Assembly (NCBI GenBank): GCA_963771885.1
Contig: CAVYVF010000022.1
Coordinates: 1 to 64,000, forward strand
Reading direction: 5' to 3'
Source of the DNA: Candidatus Bathyarchaeota archaeon
GTDB lineage: Archaea; Thermoproteota; Bathyarchaeia; TCS64
Length of the DNA: 64,000 nucleotides
In this document: positions 18,001 through 21,000 of the stretch, piece after piece
How positions within the stretch are numbered: the stretch's first letter is position 1
Layout of the letters: each line of letters starts with the position of its first letter
Made by a program: the position numbers

Positions 18001-21000
18001 GACCTGGAGAAGTACATCAGCTTCAGGTGCCCATACTGCGGCTACAGGATCTTCAGAAAGGTCCGCGCCCCGATAGTGAAGAGGGTCAAGGCGAGGTAGA
18101 CACTTTGAGTAAGAATCTATCCCTCGAAGAAAAGCGGGCGAAGCTCATAATCAAATACAGGAACCTCGAGCCGAACAATGAGAAACCCATCAGCGAGGAG
18201 GACAGGCTCGTTTACAGGCTCCACGACAAGAAGGGTCAAGCGATAGTCATGCATGCGATCCTCGGGCAGAAGACTATCGGCATCAGCTACGTGCGTGAGC
18301 TGAAGGAGATGGTGGAAAAGGAGGGCGCCGCGAAGGGCATCCTCGTCGGGGACGGCAAGTACACATACTCTGCGAGGAGTAGCGCAGAAGAACTCGGGAT
18401 AGAACTCATCCCACCCACACTCCCGACCTTCGACATCTTCGAGCACGCCTTAGTACCCCGCCACGAGATCGTGGGGGAAGAGGAGCTCGCAGAAGTTACG
18501 AAAAAGTACCACGCTGAGCCCTTCCAGTTCCCCTGGATCAAAGTGAACGACCCTATCGCCATCATTCTCGGCGCGAAACGTGGAGAAGTGGTAAGGATCA
18601 CGCAGAAGAGCGAGACGGCAGGTACTGCAATCTCGTATAGGTACGTCGTCTAATCTCTATTAGCCGAGTTCTCACGGCCCAACTCTTCTAGAATAACCAT
18701 CGCTTCACCTAAAGGCATCCCCAGCCTTTCGGATAGTTCCTCAGGTTGTACATTGGGCTTCTCGGGCAGGATTAACTCTTTGATGTAATTCTTGTGGCTT
18801 CTGTAAAGGGGTAGGCTATGAACCACCTCAACAAGGACTCCCCAGAGGGAATTCTTGTCGAGGTTGCTGCTCACTTATCTATCCCCGCCTCATCTTGTCG
18901 TACATTTTGTCGAGGCTCCAGCGAAGGCTGCTCTGTATCTCGCGTAGTCTACGCTCGCCGCCGTAGTTACGAATGGTGAGCCCCCTGATGACCTCGCCGT
19001 CAGCCACGATGCCATAAGCTGAGGACCTGCTCGGGGGTTATCTCTCCAGTCGCTGCCCTCGCTTCGTCGGTTGTCTTCATGTTAGCGAGGACCCTTTCGA
19101 GGAGGAAGGACTGGAACGGCGGAGTGGAGGTCGTGAAGTTTAGCCCCTCCCTCGGCGTGAAGACGATGGCGTCATCCGTGAGGTGAACCCTTCCGAGGAT
19201 AGTACCATCCTTTGCCTGAATAGAAGAGCCGTCGGTTACAGGCTCAACGGAAACAGATTCCATTAGATCTACAATAGGCTTCTCAACCTGCTTCACCTCA
19301 GGCATCTTCATCGCCTGGAAGCCAGAGGCAGAACTCTGCCCAGGCTGGCGGAAACCCTGCGTGACAATTGCCTTATCAAGTTCAGACATTGCCATCTTAA
19401 GGTCCTCTAACTCAGTCTGGAGCTGCTGCACCCGATCCTCTAGGTCAGCGCGCATCTTCAGCAGTTTACGTATATCTGATTCCGTGCTCATCTAGCCTCA
19501 ACTTGTGGCGGCTTCTGAAATCAAAGTGTGGACACCGCCGTTAAAAGGAATGCCCCCGAAAGGAACCCAGTTTTTATTCTCGGGAAGCCCCTTCCCACCG
19601 GTGGTTTGATGCTCGGGAGAAGGTTCGTCGAGAGGTTCAACGAGCTTAGCAGGGAGAAGAAGAGCTTCCTATGCGTGGGTCTCGACCCGGCTACGAGGGC
19701 TATCAGGGACAAGTATGTTGTTCCACAGCCCCTCATCGAAAAGTACGGAGTAGCAGGGGGACTAGAAAGATTCTGCATCGATTTCATAAAGGCAGTGGCA
19801 CCGTACACGCCCATTATAAAACCGAATGCCCAGTTCCTCGTCTACGCCCTCGGCTTCGACGGCCTGAAGGCTATTGCGGATGCCATCCACAAAGGCAATT
19901 GCCTCGCCCTCCTCGACTGCAAGCTCACAGATATCGGCTCGACGATGGACGCGGGGCTGCACTGGATAAAGGAGCTAGGCTTCGACGCGATCACCTTCAG
20001 CCCATTCCCCGGCTACGAGAACGGCGTCGACTCCGTCTACAGATGGTCGGAGAAGGAGCAGAAGGGGATATTCGCCCTCTGCAGGATGTCCAACCCGGGT
20101 ACCCACGATTACCAATCAAGGATCATGGACGGCGTGCCCTTCTACCAACGCCTCGCAAGGGACGCGACCGAGCATGGGGCGAACGGCTTCGTCGTAGGCT
20201 CCACAGCTAACGATGAGATGGGAATAGTGAGGGAGATAATCGGCGAGGAGAGGCTCATACTGTCACCTGGACTAGGCGCACAGGGCGGGGATGCCGCCGC
20301 CACGATCAGACTAGGCTCAAACAAGGACGGTGAGGGGCTCCTAGTATCATCAAGCCGCTCCGTCAACTACGCCTATGAGGTAATGAAGTGGGACTGGGAG
20401 AAATATGCAGAGGCTTCCGTCATACAGGCGAAGAAGAGCAGGGACGAGCTAAACGAACTGAGGCAGAAGGCACGACATTAAGCGGATTGTAGATTAGCGG
20501 AAAAGATATTCTTTAGTCATTGCTGCATCGTTTATTTATTGAAGTATTTACGGGTCATAGGGATGTTCAACCAAAGAGGAGACACTTTTTTACCCGCTTA
20601 GCACCCGAAAAGCATTACACTTAAACCGTTGAATACTAAGTCAAGGAGAGAGTAGTCGATTTGGACAGGCTCTACGAGATCAGGTTCCATGGCCGGGGCG
20701 GCCAGGGAGCTTGGACAGCATCGCTCCTTCTCGCTCAGGCCGGACTAATGGAGGGGAAGCAGATTCAGAGCTTCCCAGCCTTCGGCCCAGAGAGGGCAGG
20801 GGCGCCTATGACGGCTTACACTCGCATCAGCGAGAAGCCCATTCAGATACACTCCAGCGTCTATGAGCCAGATATGGTTGTCGTGCTGGACCCTACACTT
20901 CTAGGCCCGGCTGTAGCTGAAGGCCTGAAACCCTCCAGCAAAGTCGTAGTTAACACGACGGAGACCGCCGATGCTGTGAAGAAGAAGCTGGGGGTTAAGA

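Follow-up and report, generated by a model that had tools for sequence, protein, structure and literature searches.

The only Rpo5 (RpoH) subunit encoded in a Bathyarchaeial genome carries, ahead of the usual assembly domain, an additional N-terminal domain with the fold of a disabled Mrr-type nuclease, and matches eukaryotic Rpb5 in domain order and predicted overall structure. This protein is probably a member of an archaeal long Rpo5 family, built from a disabled Mrr-type domain fused to RpoH, that formed the stock of Rpb5, with the eukaryotic sequences placed among Heimdall-related Asgard forms and the Bathyarchaeial ones on a sister branch. A two-domain Rpo5 in Bathyarchaeia and Asgard archaea would move the origin of the jaw module back into the archaea, add an informational-machinery trait to the eukaryote-like features of the Asgard archaea, and make jaw function testable in simpler archaeal polymerases. 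If this is true, the lower-jaw module shared by Pol I, II, and III, together with its factor-docking surface, is older than eukaryogenesis. The partners of eukaryotic Rpb5 include TFIIB, RAP30, HBx, and Bud27/URI.

Structural papers and a fold survey, as far as the extracts of these sources go, treat archaeal Rpo5 as the assembly domain alone and the Rpb5 jaw as specific to eukaryotes. The phrase "eukaryote-specific Rpb5 jaw domain" occurs in the extract of one paper (PMC2675907), the survey's relevant entry assigns PF03871 to Eukaryota and records no HGT (PMC3424549), and a review names Rpo8, in the section concerned, as the only patchy archaeo-eukaryotic subunit (PMC7289017). No earlier description of a two-domain archaeal Rpo5 was found in such extracts of the literature; the supplementary tables of Asgard papers could list the domain.

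The long rpo5 gene and its disabled nuclease domain

The window, the whole 64,000-nucleotide stretch that was analysed, contains the two-domain long form of rpo5 (rpoH) at 18105..18653 on the + strand, a single ORF of 182 amino acids plus stop with a TTG start codon, identified by Pfam, NCBIfam, and a genome search. It begins 5 nt past the stop of an rpo12/rpoP-like zinc-ribbon gene (17899..18099, + strand), whose 66-residue translation contains a CxxC...CxxC pattern, is matched over full model length, with scores short of the respective cut-offs, by five RpoP equivalog models of NCBIfam (E 3e-11 to 4e-10), and shows a weak match to Pfam Zn_ribbon_RPAB4 (E 0.0044). This adjacency was discarded as a family trait, being kept in just two of 54 long-form loci tested, both from the same order (L002 and L003). 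Within the 2.46 Mb genome, which is 92% complete, exactly one PF01191 match exists, namely rpo5 itself, in agreement with the genome-wide survey's note, which had called it the only Rpo5 gene; by virtue of this status, the protein would be a physical subunit of the RNA polymerase. The gene and rpoB lie on different contigs (22 and 23, respectively), and rpoB is not preceded by any rpoH.

The C-terminal RpoH/Rpb5_C assembly domain spans residues 109–182 (18429..18650, + strand). Pfam RNA_pol_Rpb5_C (PF01191) matches residues 109–181 over its entire length (model positions 1–73 of 73; E 8.1e-28; 96.4 bits, cut-off 23.5), NCBIfam RpoH (NF007129) matches residues 108–182 (94.9 bits, cut-off 83), and archaeal Rpo5 chains found by a PDB sequence search align solely to residues 108–182 (E 1e-17). 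The domain belongs to the same family as the canonical archaeal Rpo5/RpoH of 78–91 amino acids (PDB 4qiw_H, 7ok0 chain H, 1hmj; TM 0.89 on the chain), and the two presumably have in common the role of an Rpo1-bound assembly subunit. However, the window protein has 104 additional N-terminal residues, and its gene lies outside the rpoH-rpoB operon that houses the canonical short rpoH.

The N-terminal, jaw-type domain occupies residues 1–104 (18105..18416, + strand) and is assigned to an inactive Mrr-type PD-(D/E)XK fold by Pfam, AlphaFold2, structure search, and a profile of this domain alone. Its predicted secondary structure comprises helices at residues 7–18, 60–73, and 88–97 and strands at 29–31, 34–40, 46–52, 77–82, and 99–102; the AlphaFold2 model of the isolated domain reaches a pLDDT of 92.5. 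Pfam Mrr_cat (PF04471) covers residues 44–102 (E 3.9e-6; 27.4 bits, cut-off 21), and NA-iREase1 (PF22722), the NACHT-associated inactive REase, gives a borderline match at residues 39–96 (E 3e-6; 27.6 bits, cut-off 27); the window protein has no NACHT domain, its partner domain being RpoH. Mrr_cat is likewise matched by all 20 Bathyarchaeial N-domains (best E 2.7e-12) and passed by 24 of 24 Asgard forms. A search with the isolated domain structure returned EndoMS (Z 11.8), AF1548 (Z 10.4), and Rpb5 (Z 7–8.3); since NucS/EndoMS and AF1548 outrank Rpb5, this search was set aside as a discriminator for Rpb5 and shows only a generic Mrr-type fold. No paralogue of the N-domain was detected in its own genome at E <= 0.01.

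Mrr-type domains (PF04471; AF1548, 1y88; NucS/EndoMS, 2vld/5gkj; MspJI, 4f0q; Z 10.4–11.8) share with the N-domain not only this fold but also a helix-1 Gly-Tyr and the VG, G, and T..A motifs. In the N-domain, however, V36, H50, and I52 stand in place of the catalytic Asp, Gln/Glu, and Lys and define the former active-site stretch (18210..18260, + strand); its DGGxD loop is shorter by one residue, and its fusion partner is a polymerase subunit instead of a DNA-recognition or ATPase module. In a joint alignment, the catalytic residues are kept by most of 48 Mrr nucleases (D in 45, Q/E in 43, K in 42), whereas the 65 polymerase-linked N-domains contain the Lys and the Gln/Glu in no case and the Asp in nine (0, 0, and 1, respectively, among the 20 Bathyarchaeial ones); the Lys has become a hydrophobic residue in 65 of 65, although catalytic residues can also be lost convergently. 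Taken with the Pfam matches, these observations support a disabled Mrr-type nuclease fold fused ahead of RpoH, and both the extra domain and its catalytic inactivity, as put forward by the survey, stand.

Likeness to eukaryotic Rpb5

When the window protein is compared with PDB sequences, eukaryotic Rpb5 chains align from residue 23–57 onward, and a full-length profile of 35 sequences finds plant Rpb5 best (7eu0_E; E 1.2e-33; residues 27–181 onto 47–205). The N-domain profile, built from 20 sequences of 20 genomes, finds Rpb5 N-domains first in the PDB, as the survey had reported: the seven best matches are eukaryotic Rpb5 chains (Drosophila 9mu7_E at E 3.3e-5, six others at 0.0013–0.0033), noise sets in from E 0.15, and no nuclease appears at E <= 1. 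The AlphaFold2 model of the full-length protein (pLDDT 93.9, pTM 0.84) retrieves eukaryotic or ASFV Rpb5 across both domains as its top 34 Foldseek matches (for example 5xog_E, with E 7e-14, TMq 0.81, 203 columns), whereas archaeal RpoH chains reach the C-domain only (TMq 0.39). The junction between the last N-domain strand and the "LVP" of RpoH (residues 99–118; 18399..18458, + strand) is 20 residues long and aligns free of gaps in Bathyarchaeia, Heimdall forms, and plant Rpb5 alike. These comparisons support an Rpb5-type domain layout and predicted structure, as the survey had proposed.

Eukaryotic Rpb5 (RPABC1/ABC27; PF03871 plus PF01191; 1dzf, 5xog_E, 7eu0_E, 9mu7_E) and the window protein have the same domain order, each with an inactive PD-(D/E)XK N-domain joined to an RpoH-fold C-domain at the same fusion point. 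They differ in length, the window protein being ~28 residues shorter (182 vs. ~210 amino acids), and in that Rpb5 serves Pol I, II, and III whereas the window Rpo5 serves one archaeal polymerase. Unlike its eukaryotic counterpart, the window protein still passes Mrr_cat and fails Pfam RNA_pol_Rpb5_N (PF03871), which gives no match in it at E <= 0.1 and, at E <= 10, none in the 20 Bathyarchaeial N-domains or anywhere in the genome. Weak matches to this model occur in only four of the 24 Asgard forms (L036–L038 and L056; best E 1.1e-4, 23.2 bits, cut-off 27), the same four that adjoin the eukaryotes in the tree described below. In Rpb5, residues ~49–117 are the aligned counterpart of the Bathyarchaeial N-profile core, and helix 1 aligns separately to ~18–44; the stretch of ~20–25 residues that follows helix 1 in Rpb5 is absent from the archaeal forms in the profile alignments.

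Profile-profile comparison places the archaeal N-domains between Mrr and Rpb5-N. With hhalign, the best partner of the Bathyarchaeial N-profile is the Asgard one (score 144, E 2e-27), followed by Mrr (120) and by a 10-sequence eukaryotic Rpb5-N profile (42–47; E 9e-8 to 6e-7, with a probability of 94% at E 9e-8); the Asgard and eukaryotic profiles match at E 3e-11 over 93 columns. Against 1.84 billion representative proteins, the Bathyarchaeial N-profile yields 756 matches at E <= 1e-3, where true Mrr nucleases score 43–68 bits and only one strong Rpb5_N-matching protein stands among the best 150, compared to 27 bits on Rpb5-N in the PDB. The survey had itself raised this higher scoring of Mrr nucleases as a counter-point, and it persists here; it nonetheless fits a chain from Mrr through the archaeal N-domain to a fast-evolving eukaryotic N-domain, and as such does not refute common origin.

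Distribution, gene position, and trees

Full-length matches are present in ~46 of 57 sampled genomes of the same class and in both genomes of the same order; in the other classes of the phylum, the C-domain only is found among the matches listed. In the Heimdall/Kari-group, 14 named loci (L025–L038) carry long forms, which provide the sole PF01191 match in four of four genomes checked. A search of 251 Asgard genomes placed 112 of the 150 matches listed in open frames of at least 171 amino acids, and in 20 Asgard loci all 21 long ORFs carry an N-type domain that scores 43–72 bits with the Bathyarchaeial N-profile. Long Rpo5 forms occur widely among Asgard archaea and in most sampled Bathyarchaeia; they are not peculiar to the Bathyarchaeion in which the survey described one. 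The Asgard proteins (Heimdall/Kari-group L025–L038; other Asgard genomes L039–L058) consist of the same two-domain unit as the Bathyarchaeial form, but also include variants unlike it, with two to three tandem N-type repeats (in Heimdall-group MAGs) and charged tails, as well as tandem gene pairs. No separate N-domain gene was found within ~800 nt of the short Asgard rpoH at 18 loci. Database entries name the long-form relatives "RNA polymerase subunit H", "hypothetical protein", or "restriction endonuclease".

Gene position separates the two forms. Directly downstream of short rpoH lies rpoB in 33 of 35 loci, whereas it follows long rpo5 in none of 20 Bathyarchaeial and none of 14 Heimdall-group loci (L025–L038); the short gene lies inside the rpoH-rpoB operon and the long one outside it.

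In the N-domain tree, the polymerase-linked domains split from the 48 nearest Mrr nucleases with support of 99–100 (100/99 on the branch); because the outgroup is the set nearest to the Bathyarchaeial profile, this split shows a clade of the present set and is not proof of one fusion event. One clade (UFBoot 95, SH-aLRT 92) unites the eukaryotic and Heimdall sequences with some of the Asgard ones, so that a subset of Asgard long forms is nearer to eukaryotic Rpb5-N, and the Bathyarchaeia form a clade of their own (91/79). In N- and C-domain trees alike, the eukaryotes make up a single long-branched clade and leave no paraphyletic stem; the eukaryotic sample is ten sequences, all animal-like. 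Approximately unbiased (AU) tests, with groupings defined after the first trees had been inspected, rejected neither a grouping of every archaeal N-domain to the exclusion of the eukaryotes (p 0.23) nor a union of eukaryotes with Bathyarchaeia (p 0.17). They used 62 rows, thinned per group from 130, from which five long-branch sequences (BN_L015, AN_L042, AN_L043, AN_L051, and, through the thinning, odd MR rows) and three truncated eukaryotic sequences (P0290–P0292) had been dropped. The C-domain tree (102 rows, 80 columns) has a poorly supported backbone. Holding the long forms and eukaryotes together gave a likelihood 4.9 log units better than the free search and, without significance, ~17 log units above a taxon-wise grouping. 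Neither constrained grouping was rejected (AU p 0.60 for the long forms together, 0.31 for Thermoproteota together), and the C-domain phylogeny was given up as an arbiter because it cannot decide between them.

Origin of the jaw domain

Common origin is the better-supported reading of the likeness between the archaeal N-domain and the Rpb5 jaw, which would make the two homologous. The survey had cast the Bathyarchaeial protein as the archaeal forerunner of full-length Rpb5. The shared ancestry contained in this proposal is strengthened by the split from Mrr nucleases with its near-maximal support, the gap-free junction, and the uniform loss of the catalytic Lys; the Bathyarchaeial form as the specific forerunner gives way, with eukaryotic N-domains grouping with Heimdall-related Asgard ones (95/92) and the Asgard profile matching them at an E-value lower than that of the Bathyarchaeial profile (3e-11 vs. 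9e-8 to 6e-7).

Alternatively, the fusion of an Mrr-like domain with RpoH may have happened independently in Bathyarchaeia, and the resemblance of their protein to Rpb5 and to the Asgard forms would then reflect convergence at a site of the polymerase prone to add-ons. Unrelated additions at this site are described in the extract of PMC2675907, namely Rpo13 (Sulfolobales) and, in Thermus, an insertion in beta-prime. Rpo13, a functional analogue only, counts as an add-on at the same site because the groove that it fills is, in eukaryotes, taken up in part by the Rpb5 jaw; it is a subunit in its own right, an unrelated helix-turn-helix protein for which no homology with the N-domain is claimed. 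The preference of the Bathyarchaeial profile for Mrr nucleases over Rpb5-N, a domain structure that does not by itself single out Rpb5-N, the separate Bathyarchaeial clade, the surviving N-domain AU alternatives, and the C-domain grouping of Thermoproteota, which was not rejected, all agree with such a re-invention. Nevertheless, the Bathyarchaeial N-domain finds its best profile partner in Asgard rather than Mrr proteins, the polymerase-linked domains stand apart from their nearest nucleases, junction length is identical and the Lys-to-hydrophobic change universal across groups, the long genes of Bathyarchaeia and the Heimdall-group both lie outside the rpoB operon, and the C-domain likelihood leans, short of significance, towards the long forms together. 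On balance, we consider independent re-invention unlikely.

Transfer in the opposite direction, by which an early eukaryote donated to Asgard archaea and Bathyarchaeia an Rpb5 gene that supplanted their own rpoH, accords with a long gene that replaces the short one from outside the native operon, as a displacing xenologue would, and the eukaryotic sample is too narrow for testing nesting within eukaryotes. Yet the archaeal N-domains are the less derived ones, retaining Mrr_cat throughout and scoring between Mrr and Rpb5-N; they lack the Rpb5 stretch after helix 1, the window C-domain scores archaeal RpoH chains (75 residues) at least as high as eukaryotic chains (128 residues), the eukaryotes form a single long-branched clade as opposed to a paraphyletic stem, and the long form is broad and deep across two archaeal groups. 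Such a transfer is very improbable. Hardly credible at all is that the N-domain is no part of the polymerase, either as an active or regulatory (e.g., defence-related) nuclease module in frame with rpoH or as an artefact of gene calling or assembly. The nuclease names of its Pfam matches, frame breaks in rpoB and rpoA of this assembly, and clearly chimeric database relatives (P0130, P0191, P0243) could suggest as much, but the uninterrupted frame recurs, at 34–100% identity, across dozens of genomes and in database entries numbering in the hundreds, the catalytic residues are missing, the gene is the sole Rpo5 gene of its genome, and AlphaFold2 confidently packs the two domains in an Rpb5-like manner.

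Under common origin, an Mrr-type nuclease would have lost its catalytic residues and become fused in front of RpoH, and the long rpo5, located outside the rpoH-rpoB-rpoA operon, would have taken over from the short operonic rpoH. Heimdall-related Asgard forms would be the point of attachment of eukaryotic Rpb5, and the Bathyarchaeial genes would form a sister branch. The C-terminal 74 residues would act as an ordinary RpoH assembly domain that anchors the subunit on Rpo1, and the N-domain may sit at the place of the Rpb5 jaw, beside the clamp head and the entry of downstream DNA, as a putative non-enzymatic module contacting DNA or factors. We lean, by a little, towards a fuller account in which one ancient fusion gave rise to a long Rpo5 that ousted the rpoH of the operon from Asgard archaea and likewise from Bathyarchaeia, the latter owing it to shared descent or an early transfer; eukaryotes would have received this protein as Rpb5 from a Heimdall-related ancestor, and the jaw domain would have been reused in a second family with a Cys-rich C-terminal domain.

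This second archaeal family combines a jaw-type domain with the Cys-rich C-terminal domain, and one member has a TFIIB-type zinc ribbon; it may represent an undescribed polymerase-associated factor.

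A two-domain Rpo5 in Bathyarchaeia and the Asgard phylum

The only PF01191 match in the 2.46 Mb genome of this Bathyarchaeon (23 contigs, 92% complete) is rpo5 at 18105–18653 on the forward strand, an open reading frame with a TTG start that encodes the 182 residues of a long, two-domain form. Pfam RNA_pol_Rpb5_C covers residues 109–181 (E 8.1e-28), and within residues ~39–102 there are matches to Mrr_cat (27.4 bits, cut-off 21) and NA-iREase1 (27.6 bits, cut-off 27); RNA_pol_Rpb5_N does not match the protein. The gene starts 5 nt past the stop of a 66-aa zinc-ribbon ORF (17899–18099, forward strand), for which NCBIfam models of RNA polymerase subunit P give E 3e-11 to 4e-10, under their cut-offs. 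The genes around rpo5 are unrelated and include a radical-SAM/B12 enzyme, OMP decarboxylase, glycosyltransferases, and a POR subunit. Downstream lie two convergent ORFs on the reverse strand with no significant Pfam or NCBIfam match, one of 74 aa (18650–18874) that overlaps the rpo5 stop codon by 4 nt and one of 163 aa (19000–19491) with the look of a coiled coil.

Most sampled Bathyarchaeia and much of the Asgard phylum have, as a conserved sole copy, a two-domain Rpo5 whose Mrr-type N-domain is dead. Among 401 genomes of the window's own phylum, full-length matches are confined to the same order (two of two) and the same class, in which ~46 of 57 genomes have the long form (one of them, G264, recognized as such only from its fetched locus, L021), ten have short forms, and one has no match. 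All match rows listed for the other classes of the phylum cover residues ~85–182 only. A search of 1.84 billion representative proteins with the N-domain profile returned 756 matches at E ≤ 1e-3. A Pfam scan of 149 of the best 150, leaving out one 3390-aa protein, reveals many more proteins of ~176–196 aa with Mrr_cat plus Rpb5_C (44–70 bits), true Mrr nucleases at 43–68 bits, and longer proteins that repeat the N-type domain several times; one of these longer proteins is a "Candidatus Heimdallarchaeota archaeon" by its cluster record. These forms occur at 14 loci in named genomes (8 Heimdallarchaeota, 1 Kariarchaeota, and 5 labeled uncultured archaeon or archaeon), and four such genomes have their sole PF01191 match in an open frame of 292–500 aa.

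Within the Asgard phylum, 237 of 251 genomes have a PF01191 match. Among the 150 matches listed (a further 112 stand outside the list), 112 are in frames of at least 171 aa and 38 in frames of at most 142 aa, two of the latter being long forms cut by contig ends. An N-type domain directly precedes the C-domain in all 21 long ORFs from 20 Asgard loci (43–72 bits, nearly full length), and each of the 24 Asgard forms with a single repeat passes both Pfam models, Mrr_cat and Rpb5_C; no N-type ORF is found near the short rpoH in 18 loci of Asgard genomes with a genuine short form.

Several Rpo5 proteins of the Heimdall/Kari group (L025–L035; P0279, P0180, P0193) reach 436–498 aa and carry two clear N-type repeats before RpoH, together with a weak third N-terminal repeat, Lys-rich linkers, and charged tails; the multi-repeat protein is the sole PF01191 match in both genomes checked, G401 and G403. 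Tandem pairs of long rpo5 genes, ~650 nt apart, occur in ~12 Asgard genomes (e.g., G611:C111, G491:C32, G450:C19, and G555:C186), both copies at the first of these (locus L055) being intact and two-domain. Two Bathyarchaeial genomes likewise contain a second long copy (L016 at G013:C11 and L017 at G053:C58), of which one is intact and the other probably a pseudogene, because it is N-terminally truncated and frameshifted.

The N-domain and the Rpb5 jaw

All 20 N-domains analyzed with Pfam match both Mrr_cat (best E 2.7e-12) and NA-iREase1 (best E 5.8e-11). The Rpb5_N model has no match among them at E ≤ 10, nor anywhere in the window's own genome. In a joint alignment, the catalytic residues of 48 true Mrr nucleases are Asp (45/48), Gln/Glu (43/48), and Lys (42/48), at which positions the window protein has V36, H50, and I52, respectively; across 65 polymerase-linked N-domains, the Asp is present in nine and the Gln/Glu and Lys in none. 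The N-domain is catalytically dead. For the Rpb5 N-domain, an inactive PD-(D/E)XK fold has already been described in two papers (PMC3424549, PMC1185551).

An AlphaFold2 model of the N-domain alone (pLDDT 92.5) likewise has a generic Mrr-type PD-(D/E)XK fold. In a structure search it matches EndoMS (Z 11.8), NucS (Z 10.6), AF1548 (Z 10.4), and Rpb5 (8uhd_E, Z 8.3 over 97 aligned residues), with AspBHI, MspJI, and further Rpb5 chains at Z 7–8.3. Because EndoMS, NucS, and AF1548 score above it, Rpb5 is not singled out by structure alone. Some Bathyarchaeial long forms have an insert in the loop that leads into the final strand of the N-domain, amounting to ~30 residues with a CxxC...CxxC zinc ribbon at L021 (G264) and to ~12 charged residues at L002 (G360) and L014 (G276).

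When the window protein is searched against PDB sequences, archaeal Rpo5 chains cover residues 108–182 only, and eukaryotic Rpb5 chains extend from residue 23–57 onward. A profile of the full-length alignment A1 (35 sequences from database hits and 19 genomes, 35–78% identical to the window protein) has plant 7eu0_E as its best PDB match (E 1.2e-33), with residues 27–181 aligned onto 47–205. The only significant PDB matches of a profile of the N-domain alignment A2 (20 sequences from 20 genomes) are seven Rpb5 chains, of which that of Drosophila scores E 3.3e-5 and those of plant, human, and other mammals 0.0013–0.0033. Unrelated proteins start at E 0.15, with S. pombe and yeast Rpb5 at 0.16 and 0.4, and no nuclease is found at E ≤ 1. 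With an AlphaFold2 model of the whole protein (pLDDT 93.9, pTM 0.84), the top 34 Foldseek matches are eukaryotic or ASFV Rpb5 covering both domains (5xog_E: E 7e-14, TMq 0.81, 203 columns), and archaeal RpoH chains cover its C-domain only. Bathyarchaeia, Heimdall forms, and plant Rpb5 share a gap-free stretch of 20 residues that runs from the final strand of the N-domain to "LVP" in RpoH. Homology of the long Rpo5 N-domain to the Rpb5 jaw, joined at the same point, is well supported.

On the polymerase, the N-domain would be expected at the lower jaw near downstream DNA; the median net charge of Bathyarchaeial N-domains is +9, but the N-domain of the window protein has only +2. Our literature searches, with supplementary tables outside their scope, found no prior description of an archaeal two-domain Rpo5. 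In the text available from each source, PF03871 is assigned to Eukaryota (PMC3424549), Rpo8 is the only patchy archaeo-eukaryotic subunit (PMC7289017), RPB8 alone is mentioned (PMC10307638), and Bathyarchaeial and Asgard Rpo5 are modeled together with Rpo6 and Rpo1 with no mention of the Rpo5 N-domain (PMC13257274, 2026).

Relationships among the N-domains

Profile–profile comparison with hhalign places the Bathyarchaeial and Asgard N-domains closest to each other (score 144, E 2e-27), followed by Bathyarchaeia with Mrr (120, E 2e-22) and Asgard with Mrr (100, E 1.4e-18). The eukaryotic sample, ten animal-like Rpb5 sequences including sponge and annelid, scores 62–65 with Asgard over 93 columns (E 3e-11), 44–47 with Mrr (E 6e-8 to 3e-7), and 42–47 with Bathyarchaeia (E 9e-8 to 6e-7). 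In maximum-likelihood trees of the N-domain, the 48 Mrr nucleases all lie on one side of a branch with SH-aLRT 100 and 99 in two large trees and 100/99 (UFBoot/SH-aLRT, as below) in a 62-row tree. Because the outgroup consists of the Mrr proteins closest to the Bathyarchaeial profile, the split marks this set off as a clade and is no proof of one fusion event.

Rooted on the Mrr branch, the 62-row tree splits into three clades: Bathyarchaeia (91/79), 13 Asgard sequences with a Cys-rich family (94/85), and a mixed clade of 8 Asgard, 6 Heimdall, and 7 eukaryotic sequences (95/92). Eukaryotes are sister to four Asgard forms, L036–L038 (L038 titled Heimdallarchaeota) and L056, a weakly supported pairing (85/38). 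Independently of the tree, the Pfam Rpb5_N model has weak matches (E 1.1e-4 to 0.033) in these four forms and in no others of the 24 from Asgard archaea. Other placements are also compatible with the N-domain data, as the AU test, on groups named once the first trees had been seen, rejects neither a position of the eukaryotes outside the archaeal N-domains as a whole (lnL -7.8, p 0.23) nor one with Bathyarchaeia (lnL -10.2, p 0.17). The C-domain tree is without resolution, and the short forms of three groups cluster together in it; holding all long forms and eukaryotes together yields a likelihood 4.9 log units above the free search (p 0.60), and constraining Thermoproteota to one group lowers it by 11.8 log units (p 0.31). 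We favor, without considering it proven, one fusion origin in which the eukaryotes branch among Heimdall-related forms and the Bathyarchaeia, a side branch, gained the fusion either by common descent or by early transfer.

The sequences of the Pfam families Rpb5_N and Mrr_cat are directly bridged by P0213, a 456-aa eukaryote-type Rpb5 from a 12.9-kb metagenome contig whose nearest relatives are animal Rpb5 proteins; its triplicated Rpb5_N (E 2.6e-49, three stretches) is accompanied by a Pfam Mrr_cat match (E 1.7e-13). The Cys-rich family, annotated as "restriction endonuclease" in databases and found in Bathyarchaeota and Ranarchaeia MAGs, joins the same jaw-type dead Mrr domain to a conserved C-terminal domain with no Pfam match, marked by a KCG motif, several Cys, and a conserved SDNA.FH...W..LL..DL stretch. 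Its members among database proteins outside the window are P0168, P0173, P0184, P0185, P0198, P0222, P0206, P0197, P0176, P0160, P0190, P0201, P0189, P0214, P0253, P0244, and P0170, the last with a TFIIB-type zinc ribbon in front. The family scores 120 to the Bathyarchaeial and 101 to the Asgard N-domains in hhalign, is nested beside Asgard Rpo5 N-domains in the tree, and may be an undescribed polymerase-associated factor. Five further proteins, mostly on short contigs, look like assembly or gene-calling chimeras, with an N-type domain or partial RpoH joined to Smr, MscS, Cpn60, CheB, or C_GCAxxG (P0130, P0191, P0243, P0156, P0240).

Gene position relative to rpoB

The short rpoH is directly followed by rpoB in 17 of 18 Asgard loci, in all seven loci of the window's class, and in nine of ten loci of other Thermoproteota. 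For the long rpo5 this holds in none of 20 Bathyarchaeial loci (300 nt flank) and none of 14 Heimdall-group loci, counts that leave out 20 other Asgard long-form loci with a downstream flank of only 100 nt. The window's own genome has rpoB and rpoA on a different contig from rpo5, with a TFS-like gene and two small ORFs, and no rpoH, upstream of rpoB.

On that genome's contig 23 (G000, L024), rpoB occupies two overlapping frames (5260–8034 and 7826–8605) with the break inside Rpb2 domain 6, and rpoA another two (8607–9134 and 9028–12486) with the break inside Rpb1 domain 1. These breaks may reflect frameshifts in the assembly or be real splits; apart from this, Rpo1 is unsplit, its A' and A'' parts lying within one 1152-aa frame.
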